A stretch of DNA of 56,024 bases, from the NCBI GenBank assembly GCA_028864875.1, contig JAGWLV010000002.1:1-56024 (forward strand). The letters run 5' to 3'. This document shows positions 2,699-44,485 of this stretch, in pieces. Numbering within the stretch: the stretch's first letter is position 1; every line of letters starts with the position of its first letter. The stretch comes from Patescibacteria group bacterium. GTDB taxonomy: Bacteria; Patescibacteriota; Minisyncoccia; Phycocordibacterales; SBAW01. A program made the position numbers and the translations under genes. The notes beneath the pieces were generated by a model, which worked only from the letters and a program-made list of their open reading frames with translations, was not told the origin of the DNA and did no database searches.

Positions 2699-4357
2699 AT
2701 GCAAGAGAAGTCATCGGTGCAAGACGAACTGTTGGCGGGGATGCTCATCGCAAGCGGCGCACTCTCCCGCCGCGCGCTACAAGAAGCGCTCGAAGAGCGC
2801 TCGGACACACCGCTTTCAACACTATTGGTAGAGCGCGGCTTGCTGTCGGAGGACGAAGTGCGCCGCGCACAGGCGCAGGCACTCGGTGTGCCGTTTGTGA
2901 CGCTCGAGAGCATTGACCCCGAAGCGCTCTCTCTCGTCCCCGAGCCGCTGTGCCGTTCGCTCAATTGTCTTGCATATGCGGCGGGGGATGTCGTCGAGGT
3001 CGCGGTCCTGTCGCTCGGCGTCCTCCCGGAGCTCGAGCCGCTGCGCGGGCAGGCGTCCTTCGGCGGCAGGCGCATTGCGGCGCGACTCACCACCAAAGAG
3101 GCGCTGCGCCGCGGACTCCTGCAGTATCAGCGTCAGCTGCGCGAGCGCTTTGGCGCGGCGATGGGGAGCGGGGACGGCGAAGTGTTGCTGCGCAACCTCG
3201 TCGAGCACGCGCGCCTCAGCGCTGCGAGCGCGATAGAACTCACGCTCGGAGCACGCGCGCAGGTGCGCTACCGCACGCATGGAAGTCTCCACGACGCGCT
3301 CGAACTCTCCGAGCGCGCCGGGCGCGCGCTTGGTGCCGTGCTGCGTGTGGGCACTGTGACTGTGGAGCTTGGCCACGGCGAGTCGGCGACACTGCGGTGT
3401 GTGCGCGCGCCCGGCGCCAACCGCTGGACGCTCACGATACTGCCCCGCGGGCGCGGCTATGCTCTTGAGGACATCGGGTTCCATGGTACCTCTCTCGAGC
3501 GCGTGCACGCGATACTCGCCGCGCGCACAGGGCTCGTGCTCATCGCTGGGGAAGAGGGCGGCGGCCGCTCCACCCTCCTCTATACGCTGCTCCACGCGCT
3601 CAATGCCCAAGGTGCATCCATCATCACCGTAGAATCGCCGGTCGGCTCGCCACTCCAGTTTGCAACACAGATTGCCGCGGGCGAAGGCAACCCGCTTTCG
3701 GTCGCCGCGGCGGTGCGCGCCGCGGCGCGCATGGAGAGCGATGTGCTCGCCGTCGACGCGATTGAGGACCGCGACACGCTCGCGGTGGCGCTCGGCGCCG
3801 CGGCGCGCGGCACGTTTGTCCTTGCAACCGTCGCCGCGCGCGGAAGTGCCAACGCCATAGACCTTGTGCGCCGCCTCGGCGCCTCGGACAAAGAGCTCGC
3901 CGCCCTTGTGAAAGGAGTCATTGCAACGGCGGTGCTCCCCAAGCTGTGCACAAAAAAATTTATGGACATGCGCCGCGGAGCGCGCGGCGAACTCAATGTA
4001 TTTGAAGCGGCGGGAGCAAACTTTGGGCGCGTGCTGAGCGCCTTAAAAGAAGAAGAGGTCGCCGCGCAACAGCTCCAGTGGAAGGACGTAACCTTCGGCA
4101 CCCCGGCGGGGTGCAGCGAGTGTAGCCACGGCTACAAGGGCACGCTCGGCGTACACGAGGTGCTCGCCCCCTCGCTCATCGGCGCGGATTTGTTGCGCCG
4201 CGGCGCGGGCGGGGCGGAGGTTGTCGAGCAATCACGCACCGAAGGCATGCTCACGCTTGTAGAAGACGGGCTCTTTAAAGCCGCCGCGGGGCAAACAAGC
4301 CTCGAAGCTCTCAAATTTGTCAGAAATGATATTTCTGACGCCTCATTGACACAGTAG
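2699..4357 (+). CDS. PilB/GspE-family paralogue with degenerate ATPase motifs (probable pseudo-ATPase) and MshEN-like N-terminus
   Basis: 552 aa. N-terminal T2SSE_N-like repeats (ELLAGMLIASGALSRRALQEALEE; LSTLLVERGLLSEDEVRRAQAQ). Walker A is GEEGGGRST versus GPTGSGKST in the pilB at 52485. Asp box is ESPVG versus EDPVE. Walker B is VLAVDAIED versus IIMVGEIRD. His box is GTFVLATVAAR versus GHLVLSTIHTN. A C-terminal CSECSHGYKG is retained. Confidence 0.8.
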   Translation: MQEKSSVQDELLAGMLIASGALSRRALQEALEERSDTPLSTLLVERGLLSEDEVRRAQAQALGVPFVTLESIDPEALSLVPEPLCRSLNCLAYAAGDVVEVAVLSLGVLPELEPLRGQASFGGRRIAARLTTKEALRRGLLQYQRQLRERFGAAMGSGDGEVLLRNLVEHARLSAASAIELTLGARAQVRYRTHGSLHDALELSERAGRALGAVLRVGTVTVELGHGESATLRCVRAPGANRWTLTILPRGRGYALEDIGFHGTSLERVHAILAARTGLVLIAGEEGGGRSTLLYTLLHALNAQGASIITVESPVGSPLQFATQIAAGEGNPLSVAAAVRAAARMESDVLAVDAIEDRDTLAVALGAAARGTFVLATVAARGSANAIDLVRRLGASDKELAALVKGVIATAVLPKLCTKKFMDMRRGARGELNVFEAAGANFGRVLSALKEEEVAAQQLQWKDVTFGTPAGCSECSHGYKGTLGVHEVLAPSLIGADLLRRGAGGAEVVEQSRTEGMLTLVEDGLFKAAAGQTSLEALKFVRNDISDASLTQ

Positions 4358-4365
4358 ATTTTTCG

Positions 4366-4388
4366 TGATAGGGTGTTGGACGGCTGAA
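4366..4388 (+). promoter_or_regulatory. Promoter/5'-leader module: TGaTAGGGT-7nt-GGCTGAA
   Basis: Sequence is gTGaTAGGGTgttggacGGCTGAAagcaTCAGCtttt. The leader hairpin is GCTGA/TCAGC, followed by a GGAGGG SD and ATG 4422. Confidence 0.5.
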
Positions 4389-5002: not shown

Positions 5003-5761
5003 ATGGCCAAAAAGCGCATCGTCATTGCCAACTGGAAGATGTACATCGCTTCGCCGAAGGCGGCGCTCGGGTTCGCCCGCGCGCTGCGCCGCCGCACGCG
5101 GCTCTTCGGCGGCATAGATATTGTGCTCGCGCCCCAGACCCCGCTCATCGGGGCGCTCTCCGGCACGCTCAAGGGCTCGACCATCAAAGTGGCGGCCCAA
5201 CACGTCTCTGAATTTGAAGACGGCGCCCACACCGGCGAGGTTGCCGCCGCCGCTCTGAAGGCCGCGGGCGCGCAGTGGGTTATTGTCGGGCACTCCGAGC
5301 GCCGCGCGCGCGGCGAAAAGGAGGCGTCTATCCACCAGCAGTTGGTAAACGCCGCCCACGCGGGGCTCGTGCCCGTGCTGTGCGTCGGCGAACGCCACCG
5401 CAGCGAGGACGGCTCACACTTCACAGTGATTGAAAAGCAGCTGCTGAGCGCCGTAAAGGGTGCGCAATCGATGCTCGGCAAAATTGTCATCGCATACGAA
5501 CCGGTGTGGGCGATAGGCAAGACTGCGGAGCACGCGATGAAGCCGGATGATCTCGAAGAGATGGTTATTTTTATCCGCAAAACCCTCGCCGAAGCGCTCT
5601 CGCGCAAAGAAGCGCTCACTCTGCCGGTCCTCTACGGCGGCTCGGTCGAGCCCCAGAACGCTGCGGCACTCATACGCACCGGCATTTCGGGCTTTCTTGT
5701 CGGACACGCGAGCGTAGAGCTCAATTCGTTCATCGAAATTCTTACCGCATGCAAAAGATAA
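5003..5761 (+). CDS. tpiA: Triosephosphate isomerase
   Basis: 252 aa with IVIANWKMY, VIVGHSERR, AYEPVWAIGTG-like (AYEPVWAIGK) and YGGSV. A TATACT -10 at 4988..4993 implies a leader of only 2-3 nt. Confidence 0.95.
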   Translation: MAKKRIVIANWKMYIASPKAALGFARALRRRTRLFGGIDIVLAPQTPLIGALSGTLKGSTIKVAAQHVSEFEDGAHTGEVAAAALKAAGAQWVIVGHSERRARGEKEASIHQQLVNAAHAGLVPVLCVGERHRSEDGSHFTVIEKQLLSAVKGAQSMLGKIVIAYEPVWAIGKTAEHAMKPDDLEEMVIFIRKTLAEALSRKEALTLPVLYGGSVEPQNAAALIRTGISGFLVGHASVELNSFIEILTACKR

Positions 5762-6828
5762 GCTCCGTCCAAGATGCTGATGTCGCAGACAAGCGCGTTG
5801 TCGTGCGCGTCGACTACAACGTGCCGCTTAAAGAGGGCCGCGTGCTCGACGACACGCGCATCGCGCTCTCGCTCCCTACGCTCAAACTCCTCAAAGAGAA
5901 GGGCGCCTCAAAACTAATTCTCCTCACTCACGTCGGCCGGCCCACAGGCACCGAAGGCGCGCTGCGTGTCGCCCCCATCGCTGCGCGGCTGCGCGAGATG
6001 CTTGGCGACCCGGGCATCGAGTTGCGCGAGAATCTGCGTTTTGATCCGCGGGAGGAGGAGGGGAGTGAGGACTTCGCCAAAGAACTCGCGCTCCTCGGCG
6101 ACGTGTATGTCAACGAGGCGTTCTCCGTCTCGCACCGCCCGCACACATCGGTTATATTTTTGCCGAAATTGCTGCCGCACTACGCCGGTCTGCGTTTTAT
6201 TGAAGAGATAGAAAAGCTTAGTGCTGCGCTCACACCGCCGCCAAAAAGCCTTGCGCTTGTCGGGGGAGCGAAGTTTGAAACAAAAGAGGCGCTGCTCGAA
6301 AAACTCCTCGGCCTCTACGACAAAGTATTCCTCGGCGGCGCGCTCGCCGACGACATCCTCAAGGCCCGCGGGATGCCTTTTGGTGGCTCGCTTGTCTCTC
6401 AAGTGCCGGTGCCCACGGTACTTGCGGGCAACGAGAAGCTTATTGCGCCCGGCGATGCCGCGGTCGTGGCCGAAGGCGTGACCCGCGGGCGCACCACACC
6501 GGTCAACGATGTCCGCGCGCACGAGCGTATTGTCGACATAGGCCCCACAACCGCCGCGGCGTGGGCCGCGGAGCTCGCTCAGGCGCCGTTTGTAGTGTGG
6601 AACGGGCCGATGGGAATTTACGAGCAGGGCTTTAGGGAGGGGACCGATACGCTCGCCAAAGCGCTCGCAGCATCGAGCGCCCGCGCGCTCATCGGCGGGG
6701 GCGACACAATCGCCGCAATCAAACAATTTTCCTTCGACCCCAAGCGCGTCTACCTTAGCAGCGGCGGCGGCGCGATGCTGCAATTTCTCTCCGATGGCAC
6801 GCTCCCCGGCATCGAGGCGTTGAAATAA
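5749..6828 (+). CDS. pgk: Phosphoglycerate kinase
   Basis: 359 aa with RVDYNVPL, LLTHVGRP, NEAFSVSHR, WNGPMGIYE and GGGDT. Overlaps the tpiA end by 13 nt. Confidence 0.93.
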   Translation: MQKISSVQDADVADKRVVVRVDYNVPLKEGRVLDDTRIALSLPTLKLLKEKGASKLILLTHVGRPTGTEGALRVAPIAARLREMLGDPGIELRENLRFDPREEEGSEDFAKELALLGDVYVNEAFSVSHRPHTSVIFLPKLLPHYAGLRFIEEIEKLSAALTPPPKSLALVGGAKFETKEALLEKLLGLYDKVFLGGALADDILKARGMPFGGSLVSQVPVPTVLAGNEKLIAPGDAAVVAEGVTRGRTTPVNDVRAHERIVDIGPTTAAAWAAELAQAPFVVWNGPMGIYEQGFREGTDTLAKALAASSARALIGGGDTIAAIKQFSFDPKRVYLSSGGGAMLQFLSDGTLPGIEALK

Positions 6829-9506: not shown

Positions 9507-10929
9507 CACGTCGAGTCGAGGCGGGCCCACGGCAAGTAAGTGGCTCCTTGGGCTCCTTATTTTTTGTACGTTGCTTGCAGTGCGCGTGCTTGTGCTCGTG
9601 CACGCCGAGCGCGCAGACACGCTCCGGAATTTTATTAATACGACCGCAGTGGTTGCGGGTATTGTCGCCGACGATCCGGATGTGCGCGCCGCGTCCGTGC
9701 GCGCCACTGTGGATGTCCGTTCCATAAACGGGCGCGCGGCGGGCGGGCGGCTCATCGCCGTGTTGCCGCGCACGACGGCCGTAGCGTACGGCGACACCGT
9801 GAGTGTGCGCGGATTTGTCGAAGCGCCCGCCGCGTTTCAAACAGACACAGGGCGACTCTTCGACTACCCTGGCTACTTGCGCGCGCAGGGAGTCTCCGCA
9901 CTCATAAACTTTGCCTCGCTGCGCTCGGCAACCCCTGCGGGGCCGACGCTGCGCGGCACACTCTTTGCGCTCAAACACACGTTCGAGCGCTCGCTTGAAA
10001 AGACGCTCCCTCAGCCCGACACCGCACTGCTCGAAGGTGTGCTCCTCGGAGAAAAGAGCGGCCTGCCGGCGCCGCTCACGCAAGCGTTCATCATCGCCTC
10101 GCTCATCCACGTGGTCGTGCTCTCGGGCTACAATATTTCCATCGTCGCCGAGGCGGTCTTGCGGCTGCTGCGCCGCTTGCCACGGGTGTTGCGCTACGCG
10201 CTCGGCGCGGTGCTCATGATCCTTTTTGCGCTGGCAACCGGCCTTGCCGCAGCCACCGTCCGCGCGCTCATTATGGCGCTTGTCGCGATGCTCGCGCGCT
10301 ACCTGCGGCGCCCCACGCTTGCGCTGCGCTCGCTAGTAGCCGCCGTGGGCGCGATGATCCTGTGGAATCCACTCGTCGCACTCTACGACCCCGGGTTCGT
10401 ACTTTCGGTCCTTGCCACGTTCGGGCTCATTGTGCTTGCACCTGCGGTCGAGGCGCACCTGCCGCGGGTACTTCAGCGCGCGCCGCAGGTGCGCTCGATA
10501 GTGGCCTCGACAATTGCCGTGCAAATTTTTGTGTTGCCGGCGCTGCTCTACTTTACAGGCGTGCTCTCGTTCGTCGCACTGCCCGCGAATATCCTCGTCT
10601 TGCCGCTTGTGCCCTTCGCCATGCTCATGGGATTTGTCGCGGGGCTCCTCAACATGCTCAATCCGATACTCGCGCTTGTGCCCGCATTGCTCGGCGACGC
10701 GGTGTTGAAGTGGATGATGTTCGTCGCGCACGCGGCGGGTGCACTACCGCTCTCCCACGTGACGGTGCCCGCATTCCCCGCGTGGGTTGCAATGCTCGTC
10801 TATCTGCCGCTTAGTGTGCTAGCGCTTGTAATTTCGCGGAGCAAAATTCTCCGCGGAGGAGTTGGGGTCGTGTTTATCTCTCCGGAGCGGAGAGTTTTGC
10901 AAAGCGACTCTCAACAACACCCCAATTGA
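9490..10929 (+). CDS. comEC: ComEC/Rec2 competence channel protein (no C-terminal metallo-beta-lactamase domain)
   Basis: Start trimmed to ATG 9490, since the track ORF from 9232 overlaps rnhA out of frame. Polytopic membrane protein with an OB-like N-domain and a competence domain (LLEGVLLGEKSGL, LIHVVVLSGYNIS). The end overlaps sod convergently. Confidence 0.8.
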   Translation: MPASPNTSSRGGPTASKWLLGLLIFCTLLAVRVLVLVHAERADTLRNFINTTAVVAGIVADDPDVRAASVRATVDVRSINGRAAGGRLIAVLPRTTAVAYGDTVSVRGFVEAPAAFQTDTGRLFDYPGYLRAQGVSALINFASLRSATPAGPTLRGTLFALKHTFERSLEKTLPQPDTALLEGVLLGEKSGLPAPLTQAFIIASLIHVVVLSGYNISIVAEAVLRLLRRLPRVLRYALGAVLMILFALATGLAAATVRALIMALVAMLARYLRRPTLALRSLVAAVGAMILWNPLVALYDPGFVLSVLATFGLIVLAPAVEAHLPRVLQRAPQVRSIVASTIAVQIFVLPALLYFTGVLSFVALPANILVLPLVPFAMLMGFVAGLLNMLNPILALVPALLGDAVLKWMMFVAHAAGALPLSHVTVPAFPAWVAMLVYLPLSVLALVISRSKILRGGVGVVFISPERRVLQSDSQQHPN

Positions 10930-11548: not shown

Positions 11549-11571
11549 TGCTATACTCGCGAACGGCTGAA
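11549..11571 (+). promoter_or_regulatory. Promoter/5'-leader module: TGcTATACT-7nt-GGCTGAA
   Basis: Sequence is gTGcTATACTcgcgaacGGCTGAAgggtctgcagttgcaggccc. A hairpin follows the heptamer. Confidence 0.55.
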
Positions 11572-12148: not shown

Positions 12149-12170
12149 TGATATTCTACAAATGGCTGAA
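12149..12170 (+). promoter_or_regulatory. Promoter/5'-leader module: TGaTATTCT-6nt-GGCTGAA
   Basis: Sequence is gTGaTATTCTacaaatGGCTGAAgaaattcGGGGGAGaagATG. Confidence 0.5.
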
Positions 12171-18000: not shown

Positions 18001-18426
18001 ATGGCTACCGCTAAAAAGACCCCAGTTAAAAAAGTTTCCGCTAAGGTAAAAGCGGCTCCTGCCACGGCGTCCGCCGAGGCAAAGCCCAAGCGCACAAAGA
18101 AAGTCACCGCGCCGGTTGAAGTGCAGCGTCTGCGCATCAAAGTGCGCGCGTACGAGCACAAAGTGCTCGACGCAAGCGTCAAGCAGATTTTGGACACGGC
18201 GCTGCGCTACGACGCAAAAGTCGCCGGGCCCATCCCTCTGCCGACCGAAATTAAAAAGTACACGGTCAACCGCTCGACCTTTATCTACAAAGACGCGCGC
18301 GAGCAGTTTGAGATGCGCATCCACAAGCGCCTCATCGACATCCTCGACCCGAGCCCCAAAGTCATCGAAGCTCTGACGAACTTGTCTCTACCCTCGGGCG
18401 TTACCATCGATGTGAAGATGGCATAA
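18001..18426 (+). CDS. rpsJ: 30S ribosomal protein S10 with a ~40-aa Lys/Ala-rich N-terminal extension
   Basis: The core [15 protein letters not shown]...HKRLIDI is S10. It is preceded by [34 protein letters not shown]. Confidence 0.93.
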
Positions 18427-18512
18427 GATTAGGATGTCCGGTCCGGGTCGAAGGGGCGAACCCCGTTGTAGACCGCCGGAGACCGACTGGTTGCTACGAA
18501 TTGCCAGTCAGA

Positions 18513-18551
18513 GGGCGGCTCACCCGTGAAAACGAGCCGCCCTTTCTCTTT
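18513..18551 (+). terminator. Intrinsic terminator directly after rpsJ
   Basis: GGGCGGCTC-acccgtgaaaac-GAGCCGCCC followed by TTTCTCTTTTT. Confidence 0.75.
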
Positions 18552-18569
18552 TTGTGCTATAGTAGAGAT

Positions 18570-18643
18570 GTTCAGGTCCCCTGAACGAACTTCCAACCAT
18601 TCTGCGGCGCTTTGGGATTCAGACCCCCTGGCGCCGCTTTTTT
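18570..18643 (+). ncRNA. Candidate short transcript or attenuating leader between rpsJ and rplC
   Basis: TGcTATAGT at 18555..18563 lies 7 nt upstream. A 5' hairpin TTCAGG/CCTGAA spans 18571..18585. The stem GCGGCGC (18604-10)/GCGCCGC (18631-37) is followed by TTTTTT. A further -10-like box TGaTATATAGT lies at 18664..18674 before rplC. Confidence 0.4.
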
Positions 18644-18730
18644 ATTTGCATAAAAAGGGGTGGTGATATATAGTCCTTGGGACTCTAGACATAGAGTTGT
18701 TCCACGTCTCCCCGGAGACCAATAGACAAC

Positions 18731-20364: not shown

Positions 20365-21210
20365 ATGAAATCCTACAAGCCATACACCAAATCGCGCCGC
20401 CACATGTCCAACGTGCCCTTCCGCACGCTGCTGAGCACAAGCGAGCCGCACAAGGCGCTCACAAAAGGCGGCAAACGCGACATGGGCCGCAGCCACGGCC
20501 GGATTTCGACGCGCCACAAGGGCGGCGGACACAAGCGCCGCTTCCGCGACGTCGACTTTACGTACAAAAAGCTCGTCCCCGCGCGTGTCGAAACTATCGA
20601 GTACGACCCGAACCGCTCGGGCTTCATCGGCCTCCTCCTCTACCGCGACGGTGAGCGCCGCTACGCACTCCTGCCCCGCACGACCAAAGTGGGCGACCCC
20701 ATCGAGACGGGCGAGGACGCCGCGCCCAAGCCGGGCAACCGGCTGCCGCTGCGGAGCGTCCCTATCGGCGCGTTTGTCTACAATGTTGAGATTAAGCCCG
20801 GACAGGGCGGCAAGCTCGGGCGCTCGGCCGGGGTGCACATCGAGGTTGTTGCGCGCGACCAGGGATATGTCGACCTCAAGATGCCTTCGAGCGAAATCCG
20901 CAAAGTCCCCGAGACCTGCTTTGCAACGCTCGGCGAAGTGAGCAATGACGAGCACCACCTCACTATTGTGGGTAAGGCCGGCCGCAGCCGCTGGAAGGGC
21001 ATCCGCCCGACCGTGCGCGGCTCGGCGATGAACCCGGTCGACCACCCCTACGGCGGCGGCGAAGGCCGCCAAGGCCGCGGCACCCGCCGCGCAAAATCGC
21101 TGTGGGGCAAGCCGACCGGCAAGGGTCAAAAGACGCGCACACCGAAGAAGTACTCCAACTACTTGATTGTGAGCCGCCGCAAAGTCGGCAAACGCAACGC
21201 CAAACAATAA
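20365..21210 (+). CDS. rplB: 50S ribosomal protein L2
   Basis: 281 aa with GRSHGRISTRHKGGGHKRR and VRGSAMNPVDHPYGGGEG. Confidence 0.97.
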   Translation: MKSYKPYTKSRRHMSNVPFRTLLSTSEPHKALTKGGKRDMGRSHGRISTRHKGGGHKRRFRDVDFTYKKLVPARVETIEYDPNRSGFIGLLLYRDGERRYALLPRTTKVGDPIETGEDAAPKPGNRLPLRSVPIGAFVYNVEIKPGQGGKLGRSAGVHIEVVARDQGYVDLKMPSSEIRKVPETCFATLGEVSNDEHHLTIVGKAGRSRWKGIRPTVRGSAMNPVDHPYGGGEGRQGRGTRRAKSLWGKPTGKGQKTRTPKKYSNYLIVSRRKVGKRNAKQ

Positions 21211-21283
21211 GAGCAGGCTTCGCCTTTCATAACGCCGTCGCTCGCTCGGAAGAATAAATTCTTCGCTCGCTTCGCTAGGCGTT

Positions 21284-21319
21284 AATAAAAACAAACCGCC
21301 CCGGACTGAAAAGTCCGGG
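21284..21319 (-). terminator. Intrinsic terminator for the antisense gene
   Basis: The minus strand reads CCCGGACT-tttc-AGTCCGGG followed by GCGGTTTGTTTTTATT. Confidence 0.7.
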
Positions 21320-21334
21320 ACGTGTTGCATGTAG

Positions 21335-21916
21335 TTAGGCTACACGCAACTTCTTGCGGCTCCCCGACGGTTTGTAGAAAAAACCATCATGAAGAGTGAC
21401 GAACTTTTTTTCGACAGGTTGCCCTATCCTTTCGCAGTAGTTTTGCAGCACTTCAGCCCACGCCTGGTCAAGAAATTTCGAGTCGATCGACTCATCAATT
21501 AGCACATTCTCAGGGGCATAGTGTTTCATTTCGAGAAATCCGAGCCGCTGTGCGTCGTAGGACGACGGATTGACCGAGCCAAAGCCGAAGTGCGGCGCGA
21601 CTGTCGCCCAGGTGACCCGCCCGTCGCCTCCGGCAAATTCGGCCACGCGCCGGAATGCAAGAGCCAGAGGATTTTGGTCATTCCAGCAGGTCTTGACGGT
21701 TGAGCGGACTTTCCCCTCAAAGATGGAGACCATCTCTAAGTACCAGCCGGGCGGGGCATTTTCCTCTAGCCACTTGAAGCCGTTTTTAGCGCGCTCAAGC
21801 ACATTGGCTGGCAAGTCGATTGCTTTTATGGCCGCCTGAACATGAGGTGAGAATTGGGAGAGATCTACAGCCACGACACTTCTCCATCGTTGTTTCAGCC
21901 GCTCAAAAAATAGCAT
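21335..21916 (-). CDS. Hypothetical protein, antisense insertion between rplB and rpsS
   Basis: 193-aa ORF with protein-like composition and no motif I recognise. It is AT-richer than its flanks. If the leader module at 21894..21915 is real, the likely start is GTG 21874, with GGAG about 8 nt upstream. Confidence 0.6.
   Translation of the reverse strand: MLFFERLKQRWRSVVAVDLSQFSPHVQAAIKAIDLPANVLERAKNGFKWLEENAPPGWYLEMVSIFEGKVRSTVKTCWNDQNPLALAFRRVAEFAGGDGRVTWATVAPHFGFGSVNPSSYDAQRLGFLEMKHYAPENVLIDESIDSKFLDQAWAEVLQNYCERIGQPVEKKFVTLHDGFFYKPSGSRKKLRVA
21894..21915 (-). promoter_or_regulatory. Promoter/5'-leader module: TGcTATTTT-6nt-GGCTGAA
   Basis: Minus-strand reading is TGcTATTTTttgagcGGCTGAAacaacgatGGAGaagtgtcGTG. 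It overlaps the first codons of the long ORF version. Confidence 0.4.
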
Positions 21917-22029
21917 AATTTGACGCCCCTAGCCACTTCCTATATAGTGCCCGTACATCCCGTGCTGCAAGGTCCAGGCGCTCGCTGCTTGTGACGGGCA
22001 GGGGAATTTCATTTGGAAATAAAAAAATC

Positions 22030-22377
22030 ATGTCACGCAGTCTCAAAAAAGGTCCGTACGTGGACGAAAAATTGCTCCAAAAAGTAGCCGGCACAAAGCC
22101 CGGCTCTGTGACCATCAAAACATGGGCGCGCCGCAGCGCGATTGCGCCGGAGTTCGTCGGCTTTACCTTCGGGGTGCACAACGGCAAGTCGCACATCGAC
22201 GTGCTCGTGACCGAGGATATGGTCGGGCACCGCTTGGGCGAATTTTCTCCGACCAAGAAGTTTACCCGCCACGGCGGCAAGATGCAGAAGGAGCTCGAGC
22301 AGAAGCAGAAGGAGGCTGAAATCGCCGCAGCCCAAGCCGCCAAATCTGTCACCGACACCAAGGAGAAGAAGCAATAA
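22030..22377 (+). CDS. rpsS: 30S ribosomal protein S19 with a charged C-terminal extension
   Basis: [16 protein letters not shown]...[13 protein letters not shown], plus the tail [34 protein letters not shown]. Start trimmed to ATG 22030. Confidence 0.93.
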
Positions 22378-25462: not shown

Positions 25463-25471
25463 TTTTAAAAA

Positions 25472-25514
25472 GCAAAACCTCGCCGCCTCGGATTTGAGGG
25501 GCGGGGTTTTTTGT
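25472..25514. terminator. Bidirectional intrinsic terminator (rplE on +, cassette gene B on -)
   Basis: Long hairpin CCTCGCC.CCTC/GAGGGGCGGGG flanked by CAAAA and TTTTTT. Confidence 0.75.
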
Positions 25515-25524
25515 TTGAGGCGGC

Positions 25525-25887
25525 TTATGCCGCGAGCACAGTATCGACCACTTTGAGCAGCACCGGTGTGGGGAGCGTGCGGCCCAGGTACTCGTCGACG
25601 AACGGTGCGATTTCAACCGCCCGGATGCGCCGGCTAAAGCGGTTTATTGTCTCGTCGGTCTCCAAAAACGAGCGCTGCTGGGCGGCGTCGAGCCGCGCCA
25701 GAAGCTTTGGGTCGGAGGCCACCTTTCGAGGCGGGTGGAGTGCCTTGAATTCCTGCGCGAGCCGGATGGCCCCCGCGAGTTTTTTGAGCGACTCTTCAGG
25801 CCGCAGGCCTGCAGCCTCAATCTCCGCGAGCGCTTTCGAAAAGAGCGCGCGGTTGGACTCCACAAGTGTTTGATCAAGCGGCGTCAC
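25525..25887 (-). CDS. Hypothetical helical protein (cassette gene B, 120 aa)
   Basis: GTG 25887 has a GAGGAGG SD 7 nt upstream and overlaps the stop of gene A. Only the C-terminal 120 aa of the 198-aa track ORF looks protein-like (TPLDQTLVESNRALFSKALAEIEAAG...). Confidence 0.55.
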   Translation of the reverse strand: MTPLDQTLVESNRALFSKALAEIEAAGLRPEESLKKLAGAIRLAQEFKALHPPRKVASDPKLLARLDAAQQRSFLETDETINRFSRRIRAVEIAPFVDEYLGRTLPTPVLLKVVDTVLAA

Positions 25888-26152
25888 GAAGCACCTCCTC
25901 CTCGCCGGTTGTCGAAATCCGCACGTGTTTCGTGCCGATCTTGAACACCGCCGAGAGCCATTTGAAGTCCTCGCACGTCCGGACCGTGTTCCGCACAACA
26001 TCCGGACACTCCGGGTGGTGTTTGAGGATGTCGCGGGCGTGTTCGTCGACGTGTTTGGTGTCGTCGGCCTTGTCGTGGGTCGAGACAAACGTGAGAGCGT
26101 CGAGCAGTGCCTCGTAGGCATTGCTTATCTGCTCCTTGAAGTGCGTATCCAT
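25874..26152 (-). CDS. Hypothetical protein (cassette gene A, 92 aa)
   Basis: MDTHFKEQISNAYEALLDAL...EHARDILKHHPECPD.... It has a GGGAGG SD and a GGCTGCAA leader variant upstream. Confidence 0.55.
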   Translation of the reverse strand: MDTHFKEQISNAYEALLDALTFVSTHDKADDTKHVDEHARDILKHHPECPDVVRNTVRTCEDFKWLSAVFKIGTKHVRISTTGEEEVLRDAA

Positions 26153-26170
26153 TGAGCCTCCCTCAGAGAA

Positions 26171-26190
26171 TTGCAGCCGTGCGTAATCTA
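26171..26190 (-). promoter_or_regulatory. Promoter/5'-leader module (variant): TAGATT-6nt-GGCTGCAA
   Basis: Minus-strand reading is TAGATTacgcacGGCTGCAAttctctgaGGGAGGctcaATG. Confidence 0.4.
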
Positions 26191-26239
26191 ACCCATAAAT
26201 CTTTGTTAGTCAAATTAGTTGCACGTGCGAGAGTCCTTG

Positions 26240-26280
26240 TGCTATATTCTCCTCTAGCCCGCGAGGGCTCCTTATTTTTC
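26240..26280 (+). promoter_or_regulatory. rpsN promoter (TGcTATATT) with a terminator-like hairpin at the predicted transcript start
   Basis: TATATT at 26243..26248. Seven nt later comes AGCCC-gcga-GGGCT (26256..26269), then CCTTATTTTT. Confidence 0.45.
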
Positions 26281-26326
26281 TGCCAGGTCCCCTACATAGG
26301 TGGGATACCAGCAGAATCACAAGCCA

Positions 26327-39610: not shown

Positions 39611-39644
39611 CAAAAGCGCCCTTTGTGCGCTTTTGTTTTCTTTG

Positions 39645-40017
39645 TGGAGATGGGGGGAATCGAACCCCCGTGCAACAGTTGATGCAGTGCGCGTCTACAA
39701 GACGTAGTGAGCTTTCAGTTCTCGACGTGGTGCATCAAAAGCGCACAAAAGCGCATCACGTTAGAGCTCTGGTCTTAGGCGGGGTAGTGAGCAGCTACTC
39801 CGCAGCATCCCGGTGGTATAACACCCGGCTCTTCCTCACAGGAGTTGGAAGAGGGGTGACGACTTACGCCTTAGCGTAGGCGAAGTCGAAATCATTCGCC
39901 GCGAAAAACGGCGATGCAACTGATTTGGCAGTTATAGGTTGGAGCAGTTTTAAGAAGTGCTCCAGTTCTGCCTCGCAGCGCACAAGCATGCATCTGCTGT
40001 CTAGGCCTGTCATCCCC
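39645..40017 (-). ncRNA. ssrA: tmRNA (SsrA)
   Basis: The 5' GGGGAUGACAGG pairs with the 3' ...GGUUCGAUUCCCCCCAUCUCCA, with G3:U in the acceptor stem and discriminator A. An internal frame ends ...GCGGCGAAUGAUUUCGACUUCGCCUACGCUAAGGCGUAA (..AANDFDFAYAKA*). It lies immediately downstream of smpB. CCA is not encoded. Confidence 0.9.
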
Positions 40018-40576: not shown

Positions 40577-40599
40577 TGCTATAATTTTAAACGGCTGAA
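40577..40599 (+). promoter_or_regulatory. Promoter/5'-leader module: TGcTATAAT-7nt-GGCTGAA
   Basis: Sequence is gTGcTATAATtttaaacGGCTGAAggcaggcccaaatggccctgcc. A hairpin follows the heptamer. Confidence 0.55.
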
Positions 40600-44462: not shown

Positions 44463-44485
44463 TTCAGCCATTTCGCACAATAGCA
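44463..44485 (-). promoter_or_regulatory. Promoter/5'-leader module: TGcTATTGT-7nt-GGCTGAA
   Basis: Minus-strand reading is TGcTATTGTgcgaaatGGCTGAAattttaaagggtgtcctcATG. Confidence 0.5.

Follow-up and report, generated by a model that had tools for sequence, protein, structure and literature searches.

The window examined here is a 56,024-nucleotide (nt) stretch of DNA from a Patescibacteria group bacterium (assembly GCA_028864875.1, contig JAGWLV010000002.1), and our subject is an antisense gene, here called ORFX, that lies within its S10 ribosomal protein cluster. The gene rplB, encoding L2 (20365..21210, plus strand; identified from its open reading frame (ORF) and translation), closes an upstream unit of rplC-rplD-rplW-rplB, and rpsS, encoding S19 (22030..22377, plus strand, ATG at 22030; identified from its ORF and by tblastn to related loci), opens a downstream unit that runs from rpsS to rplE. 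Between them lies a gap of 819 nt (21211..22029). A first-pass annotation made from the letters of the window had reported an ORF at 21335..21916 on the minus strand of this gap, and it is present as described. The loci with which we compared the window carry numbers preceded by L.

We place the ORFX coding sequence at 21335..21874 (minus strand, GTG to TAA, 179 amino acids), an extent consistent with its homologues, its substitution pattern and its AlphaFold model. The first-pass annotation had argued for the GTG at 21874 from a leader motif, and this start now has several supports. It is preferred because the N-termini of homologues line up with it (MAVDLSQF in ORFX versus MSVDISKF, MAVDVTKF, and MVDMSQF), because a GGAG Shine-Dalgarno sequence lies 7 nt upstream (21882..21885, with GGAG or GGAGG at the equivalent place in homologues), because the alternative ATG at 21916 falls within the promoter element TGCTATTTT (21907-21915), and because the GGCTGAA module upstream is a recurring one. 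Annotations of this gene should accordingly start at GTG 21874.

The predicted promoter and start module of ORFX (21894..21915, minus strand) consists of the extended -10 element TGCTATTTT and, at the predicted transcript start, GGCTGAA (21894-21900). The proposal that these form a leader module was borne out by a scan of the window, in which the pattern TGnTAnnnT-N6-7-GGCTGAA occurs six times, always 5' of an ORF (4366-4388, 11549-11571, 12149-12170, and 40577-40599 on the plus strand; 44463-44485 and the ORFX copy at 21894-21915 on the minus strand). GGCUGAA would form the first bases of the mRNAs that bear the module; related loci show AGAA or GGAA there. Upstream regions of homologues likewise hold a -10-like element (TGCTATAGT, TGCTATCGT, TATAGT, or TAGGGT) at a constant distance, followed by a short 5' untranslated region (UTR) and GGAG, with TGCTATAGT, TGCTATCGT, and TATAGT at the equivalent promoter position in L002, L015, and L032. 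Where another gene precedes ORFX (L002, L004, L006, L032), a terminator stands between the two. A palindrome of 10 bp, CTTGCGCAAG (CTTGCGTAAG in L003), was also seen at the -35 position of the ORFX promoter in L001 (~3150-3165), L003, and L004; it could be an operator or a pair of overlapping divergent -35 elements.

At its other end, ORFX has a predicted intrinsic terminator (21284..21322, minus strand), which a terminator scan resolved into the stem-loop CGCCCCGGACT-GAAA-AGTCCGGGACG (21297..21322) and the run GTTTGTTTTTATT (21284..21296). The stem of 11 bp includes 8 G-C pairs, the loop has 4 nt, and the sequence that follows on the minus strand is GTTTGTTTTT, as expected of a rho-independent terminator. 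A hairpin and T-run stand 3' of the homologue in nine of nine other loci examined, so the terminator that had been assigned to ORFX from the window has equivalents elsewhere. The hairpin after ORFX in L001, L010, and L014 is flanked by both an A-run and a T-run (in L004 likewise, less clearly) and should therefore terminate rplB transcripts too. The convergent spacer between ORFX and rplB (21205-21340) folds far more stably than its shuffles (z -4.7) and contains a long imperfect hairpin at 21225..21289 (inverted repeat I7), with arms TTTCATAACGCC and GGCGTTAATAAA and an inner stem GAAGAA-TAAA-TTCTTC. ORFX is monocistronic in the window, L001, L003, L005, and L014, while its partners elsewhere vary. 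By its predicted signals (extended -10, a 5' UTR of ~26 nt with a Shine-Dalgarno sequence, GTG, and intrinsic terminator), ORFX is a self-contained single-gene unit on the minus strand.

The ORFX promoter stands back to back with the promoter of rpsS, both of them predicted as sigma-70-type. The extended -10 of ORFX lies 5 bp from the rpsS -35 (21920-21925, plus strand), and in L013 the -10 elements of the two genes overlap on opposite strands. The predicted transcript starts, ~21900 for ORFX and ~21955 for rpsS, are ~55 bp apart, which is less than two polymerase footprints, and simultaneous occupancy would therefore be excluded. Heavy use of the rpsS promoter would then be expected to lower ORFX transcription.

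ORFX is a real, conserved gene, because it has homologues, evolves under purifying selection, and yields a confident AlphaFold model. The first-pass annotation had left the conservation of the ORF to protein searches, and these found relatives: a word-indexed search of 5.8 billion proteins gave three homologues at 48-55% identity, and an exhaustive profile hidden Markov model search of 1.84 billion representative proteins gave 69 clusters, 25 of them with E < 1e-10. The ratio of nonsynonymous to synonymous substitution rates (dN/dS) is 0.11-0.12 in close pairs, the only pairs in which it is informative, synonymous sites being saturated in most others, and indicates purifying selection. AlphaFold confidence went from a predicted local distance difference test (pLDDT) score of 40 with 4 sequences to 90.1, with a predicted template modelling (pTM) score of 0.81, from a 70-sequence alignment. 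In this model, an ordered alpha/beta domain spans residues 1-150, and the remainder (151-179) is a flexible tail (pLDDT 60-67) that ends ...KKLRVA.

Known families did not account for this domain. The best ORFX match had an E of 0.19 in Pfam and 0.014 in NCBIfam, neither of which passes cut-offs, and scans of all 70 members against Pfam, NCBIfam, PHROG, and PADLOC profiles found FtsK_gamma on one fusion protein and otherwise noise. The earlier remark that the protein has no placeable motif therefore stands, in that these curated-family scans gave no match over the domain. A fold search returned no relative in PDB or in the viral folds of BFVD, and the GenBank label of one family member is "hypothetical protein". 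Family-wide, the invariant or near-invariant positions are W, L, A, G, and F (R28 is invariant within type 1, described below); none of the conserved positions holds a catalytic-looking residue, and broad family alignments contain no conserved stretch of 7-10 residues. Two candidate identities did not fit ORFX. A type II toxin-antitoxin pair would need a constant co-transcribed small partner gene, which ORFX lacks, and a free-standing homing endonuclease or mobile element is not indicated by any nuclease, integrase, or transposase domain, by flanking repeats, or by the nature of the invariant residues.

The location of the family is constant. All 25 loci with any flanking sequence, the window included (~21 distinct after merging near-identical assemblies), have ORFX antisense between rplB and rpsS, and this holds for members only 26-30% identical to the ORFX of the window. 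Besides the window, these are L001-L003, L004-L007 (four GTDB representatives), L008, the distant L010, L011, and L013 (26-29% identity), L014-L017, L032, L018, and seven metagenome loci (L099-L105). The member in L018 (309-998, protein P0060) carries an FtsK gamma winged-helix DNA-binding domain as a C-terminal fusion and is divergent from rpsS. The rplB of the window is 62-82% identical to that of metagenome-assembled genomes (MAGs) of Adlerbacteria/Paceibacteria.

What lies beside ORFX is much less constant. Co-oriented passengers include a DUF3298 protein, a PyrF-like gene (L007), RadC (L013), small ORFs, and a tandem paralogue (L010). In islets of the host group defined below as group B (L006, L007, L011, L015-L017), a membrane-anchored DUF3298 protein with an RsiV-like ectodomain always adjoins ORFX, coming first in L006, L007, and L011 and after ORFX in L015-L017. 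Some type 1 loci have, between rpsS and ORFX, a small conserved ORF (MR[TS]Y[QN]FRY...W EK..GFR[HY]V) with its own terminator (L002 322-597; L004 ~5620-5899). L010 is a 602-kb Joint Genome Institute (JGI) marine contig (sample 3300020367), a near-genome-sized member of the candidate phyla radiation (CPR), and has antisense ORFs at three cluster junctions, adk|secY, rplE|rpsN, and rplB|rpsS (1187-1636, 5552-5953, and 9602-10528). At the last of these, ORFX and a shorter ORFX-family paralogue stand in tandem.

We also compared the rplB-rpsS interval among the 80 nearest species representatives by rplB, among the matches listed; the nearest were MAGs labelled Candidatus Adlerbacteria, Nomurabacteria, Paceibacterota, and similar. 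Both genes were found in the fetched stretch of 61 of these 80 loci, and 11 others had no rpsS within 4.5 kb. As measured between tblastn match ends, the spacing in the 61 loci was at most 150 nt in 9, 151-300 nt in 4, 301-1000 nt in 32, and more than 1 kb in 16. It ranged from 5 nt to more than 4 kb, the lower end being the canonical 5-nt junction of L095, which was measured from the rplB stop codon. ORFX was present in one of the 80 (L032), and a search of the ORFX-less gaps in all frames (hmmsearch --max) found no ORFX remnants. The ORFs in these gaps are mostly unrelated singletons (86 of ~107). In a more distant group, they include what we take, from inspection by eye, to be pyrE-like and pyrF-like genes and a putative diacylglycerol-kinase-like membrane protein.

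Even where the gap is short and gene-free, rplB is followed by a terminator, and rpsS is preceded by a strong promoter of the form TTGACW-16/17-TAnnAT and by a hairpin and U-run in its leader. The promoter assigned to rpsS in the window (TTGACG-17-TATAGT, 21920..21948, plus strand) scored 10/12 against the consensus, the top score over the 10 kb scanned, and the TTGACW-16/17-TAnnAT pattern is found 5' of rpsS in 62 of the 80 related loci; the separate rpsS promoter proposed in the first-pass annotation is thus a conserved one. The annotation had also held that ORFX splits the operon. This was not upheld, because in relatives without ORFX the operon is already broken at rplB|rpsS by a terminator and a promoter, and the gap would on that account be a pre-existing insulated landing pad with cargo turnover. 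Judging from these comparisons, the ancestor of the clade probably had its S10 operon severed into two transcription units, and the interval became a hypervariable cargo site of which ORFX is one recurrent tenant. Our literature search found no paper describing a break at rplB|rpsS in CPR bacteria.

The rpsS promoter is followed by a 5' leader (21955..22029, plus strand) in which RNAalifold and pair counts delineate a two-tier hairpin (~21958-21997) with an invariant loop, CGCTCnnTG, and then a U-rich tract. A leader hairpin of some kind occurs in 55 of the 80 loci, with many different yet complementary stems. Across 17 Adlerbacteria-like loci (window included), 98.4% of cells were paired and 10 of 15 pairs had compensatory changes; 0 of 500 shuffles matched this, and slid controls were 38-50% paired. 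The thermodynamic stability of the leader is unremarkable (z +0.67), so covariation is needed as support, and the structured leader described earlier holds for its covarying pairs but not for any unusual stability. It has no Rfam match. With a covarying structure between a promoter and a ribosomal protein gene, it is a candidate for a new ribosomal-protein leader RNA. A shorter class of rpsS leader was observed across Paceibacteria (L019-L098, L005-L017), with a hairpin of 5-7 bp and a U-run directly after the promoter, ~30-40 nt 5' of rpsS. Its stems differ by lineage but stay complementary (CCCGC/GCGGG, GAGCTC/GAGCTT, GCCTG/CAGGC, GCAGC/GCTGT), it is absent from Rfam, and it is a candidate attenuator or 5' stabiliser.

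Two deeply diverged types of ORFX could be distinguished, and these do not follow the host groups. By rplB, the window, L001, L003, L004, L005, L014, and L032 form host group A, and L007, L011, and L015-L017 form group B, with L010 outside both. ORFX type 1, with a near-neutral isoelectric point (pI; 5.5-7), is found in the window, L001-L008, and L032, and type 2, with a basic pI, in L009-L011 and L013-L017. The mismatches are L014 (group A with type 2) and L007 (group B with type 1); L006 also has type 1, and its other ribosomal proteins and islet layout resemble those of L007. L007 and L011 are 84% identical in rplB and their islets have the same layout, with ORFX proteins only 28-37% identical. 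More generally, at rplB identities of 87-90%, ORFX identity spans 46-50% to 85-89%. Given the tandem pair in L010, the types could stem from an old duplication followed by reciprocal loss; alternatively, they may have been exchanged by way of the conserved ribosomal flanks. A test for lateral replacement, which looked for excess synonymous divergence (dS) of ORFX over its flanks, met a two-fold variation in dS among the flanking ribosomal genes themselves.

The C-terminal tail offers a hint about the fate of the protein. The ssrA tag ends ..LAA in Escherichia coli, and natural substrates of ClpXP and related proteases carry -AA-like ends. In the ORFX family, -AA is the C-terminus of 16 of 81 members and roughly half have a final -A, with tails such as ..YAKVA, ..YNKAA, ..YTKAA, and ..YQKAA; the tails are variable and of low confidence. 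None of 64 other ORFs in the window ends in -AA, the sole other such ends being those of two antisense ORFs in the rplE|rpsN gap. The transfer-messenger RNA (tmRNA) of the window (39644-40017, minus strand) encodes the tag peptide AKSVASPFFAANDFDFAYAKA, ending ..FAYAKA, and several family tails resemble its AYAKA end. The -AA or -xA tail thus resembles an intrinsic ssrA-like degron, which suggests that ORFX is a likely protease substrate and a short-lived cytosolic protein.

Taken together, these observations are best explained, with a probability that we put at about 0.62, if ORFX is a genuine lineage-restricted accessory gene residing where an old gap, running from terminator to promoter, separates two parts of the S10 operon at rplB|rpsS in Adlerbacteria-like Paceibacteria of the CPR. 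The break would consist of the terminator after rplB, the rpsS promoter, and the covarying leader hairpin, and would predate the presence of ORFX, whose own terminator would face rplB and whose promoter would stand back to back with that of rpsS. The family would be confined to this site and to a minority of species, as two types off the rplB tree, and may have persisted by vertical descent with frequent loss, plus sorting of tandem paralogues or allele exchange through the ribosomal flanks. Its product would be a soluble cytoplasmic protein with a domain of ~150 residues, probably acting by binding rather than catalysis, whose tail may be targeted by proteases so that the protein is short-lived. 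The divergent promoters may obstruct each other, in which case ORFX output would drop when the rpsS promoter is busy. Our preference is for a short-lived protein that binds or regulates, the chief alternatives being a role in conflict or one tied to translation.

Several points weigh against this account. The ORFX of the window ends in -RVA rather than -AA, and the putative degron is proposed from C-terminal composition. In the window, the hairpin has a good U-tract only on the ORFX strand and none for rplB, so some rplB read-through across ORFX is possible. Promoters, terminators, and transcript starts are consensus-level predictions throughout. The fold searches covered PDB and BFVD but not the AlphaFold database. 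The incongruence of types and hosts comes from identity matrices and neighbour-joining trees with long branches, and within types close pairs look vertical, with ORFX dS inside the two-fold range of the flanking ribosomal genes. Finally, the prevalence of 1 in 80 comes from a set that lacks the known carriers L004, L005, and L014.

Among the other explanations, that of a chance ORF in a G+C-rich spacer appeals to the many long spurious ORFs that arise in such DNA; its probability is practically negligible given a protein family under purifying selection, a confident fold driven by co-evolution in the alignment, and conserved start, Shine-Dalgarno sequence, promoter, and terminator. A recent foreign insertion, in which a phage, plasmid, or other mobile element entered the S10 operon, would match the foreign origin suggested in the first-pass annotation, which had sampled ORFX by hand. 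Its counts of 31 and 25 G+C per 60 nt are exact, and over the full gene ORFX is indeed poorer in G+C, at 53.7% with a value of 0.62 at third codon positions (GC3), against 59.5 +/- 4.0% and 0.733 +/- 0.067 for the genes of the window. The patchy distribution of the family would also suit an insertion. The deviation is modest, however, at ~1.5-1.7 standard deviations low, several other ORFs of the window are lower still, and ORFX is not an extreme outlier. No homologue was found in 50,697 phage genomes (INPHARED, tblastn) or in two scans of IMG/VR viral contigs, and no plasmid or out-of-lineage relatives appeared among the homologues with context, all of which, even at 26% identity, belong to one CPR lineage and occupy one site. 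PHROG matches, considered as a phage link, were discarded when all of them traced to the FtsK gamma domain of the one fusion protein. No flanking repeats point to insertion. Foreign origin is thus weakly supported, and a recent insertion is largely refuted and very improbable.

It is unlikely, in our estimation, that ORFX is cargo of a conflict system, that is, a single-gene defence, immunity, or self/non-self factor whose divergent alleles are held by diversifying or balancing selection at a hypervariable locus. Patchy presence, two deep types at odds with the host tree, the duplicate in L010, the wide span of ORFX identity at nearly constant rplB identity, the RadC neighbour in L013, and the FtsK gamma fusion would all fit such a role, but PADLOC gave only noise, most loci lack a partner gene, other islet cargo includes the presumed housekeeping genes listed above, dN/dS is clearly purifying, and no catalytic residues are conserved. 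A translation-linked factor, whose target would be the ribosome or the expression of the rpsS unit and which a shared divergent control region would keep in place, is less likely again. Its exclusive residence in a ribosomal protein cluster, the closely spaced or overlapping divergent promoters, and the ssrA-like tails, which tie ORFX to trans-translation and the proteolysis machinery, would be expected of such a factor. Against it, most close relatives without ORFX retain the rpsS promoter and leader, other genes intervene between ORFX and rpsS in L004, L006, L007, and L011, and type 1 proteins are neutral to acidic and so unlike RNA-binding ribosomal factors. The layout of an antisense gene between co-directional genes of one functional cluster also recalls the noncontiguous operons or excludons known from Staphylococcus aureus and Listeria (PMC11034616, PMC7154746, PMC12288877), in which case the rplB transcript would run through ORFX into rpsS and the overlapping RNAs would make expression mutually exclusive. 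The opposed orientation gives scope for this, and the one-sided U-tract of the window hairpin would allow it. We consider it improbable since the hairpins of L001, L010, and L014 should halt both convergent transcripts and rpsS has a strong, conserved promoter and leader of its own even in gene-free gaps; the terminators, internal promoter, and leader at the ORFX locus predict insulation rather than a spanning transcript.

A more specific version of the accessory-gene account, speculative and about as improbable as an excludon, is that ORFX is a new fold and family whose level is set by competition from the rpsS promoter and by constant degradation through its ssrA-like tail, which would make it a built-in sensor or effector of translation stress with its position as part of the mechanism. 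If this were true, ORFX would accumulate only when transcription of ribosomal protein genes falls or when tagged products of stalled ribosomes saturate the protease.

Few gene orders are as well conserved across Bacteria and Archaea as that of S10, which serves as a syntenic block for CPR phylogenomics. The rplB|rpsS gap shares with the core-gene-flanked integration hotspots or genomic islets of bacterial pangenomes a fixed interval between core genes, fast cargo turnover, and patchy accessory genes. It differs in that its flanks are essential ribosomal genes of one operon, with no integrase, tRNA, or repeats, and in that its cargo is mostly antisense single genes, with one family site-locked over deep divergence. 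The S10 leader of E. coli is an attenuator controlled by L4, and the rpsS leader resembles such ribosomal protein leaders in its conserved, covarying hairpin, its invariant loop, and its U-rich tract between a promoter and a ribosomal protein block. Unlike them, it has a new location, before rpsS, and no Rfam family. Among evolutionary precedents, the nearest is the invasion-separation of concatenated translation operons, in which unrelated genes occupy the gap between transcription units (PMC8046335, PMC6735719); single genes of translation clusters can also be swapped for distant homologues with their neighbours undisturbed (PMC8046335). As in those operons, a few unrelated genes sit in a gap of an otherwise ultra-stable translation cluster. 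The break considered here, in contrast, falls within the canonical S10 operon rather than between operons, is clade-wide in Paceibacteria with hypervariable content (5 nt to >4 kb), and houses a site-exclusive family.

The picture that these comparisons support is of a whole Paceibacteria clade that broke its S10 operon at rplB|rpsS, where a terminator stands along with a promoter and a covarying leader RNA that are both new, and in which the break has become a hypervariable cargo site within an essential gene cluster. One cargo family, lacking detectable relatives in sequence or fold, occurs only there. The locus may thus be a concrete case of insulated gaps in essential operons becoming gene nurseries or landing pads in reduced genomes, and it yields both a candidate ribosomal protein leader RNA and an orphan fold that could be expressed and solved.

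Beyond the rplB|rpsS gap, the cluster appears to be divided into several transcription units, as had been suggested earlier, with terminator-like hairpins after tuf, rpsJ, and rplE and promoter-like sites before rplC, rpsS, and rpsN. The rplE|rpsN gap (25463-26326) is a second antisense islet, with a terminator after rplE (25483-25504) and two minus-strand ORFs, one at 25874-26152 (92 amino acids, ending ..RDAA) and one in the lower part of 25525-26121 (ending ..VLAA). Neither is related to ORFX, the fetched loci contain no homologue of either, and the 92-residue product has none among 5.8 billion proteins. Before rpsN, TGCTATATT (~26240) is followed by a hairpin and T-run (26256-26280), the same layout as before rpsS. 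The rpsJ|rplC spacer (18427-18730, 304 nt) holds two terminator-like hairpins with T-runs, an extended -10 element TGCTATAGT (18555) between them, and then a predicted promoter TTTGCA-18-TATAGT (18645-18674); it may give rise to a short transcript or hold an attenuator before rplC. Two of the ribosomal proteins are themselves extended, S10 (18001-18426) by a Lys/Ala-rich segment of ~35 residues at its N-terminus and S19 (22030-22377) by a Lys/Glu/Ala-rich segment of ~25 residues at its C-terminus.

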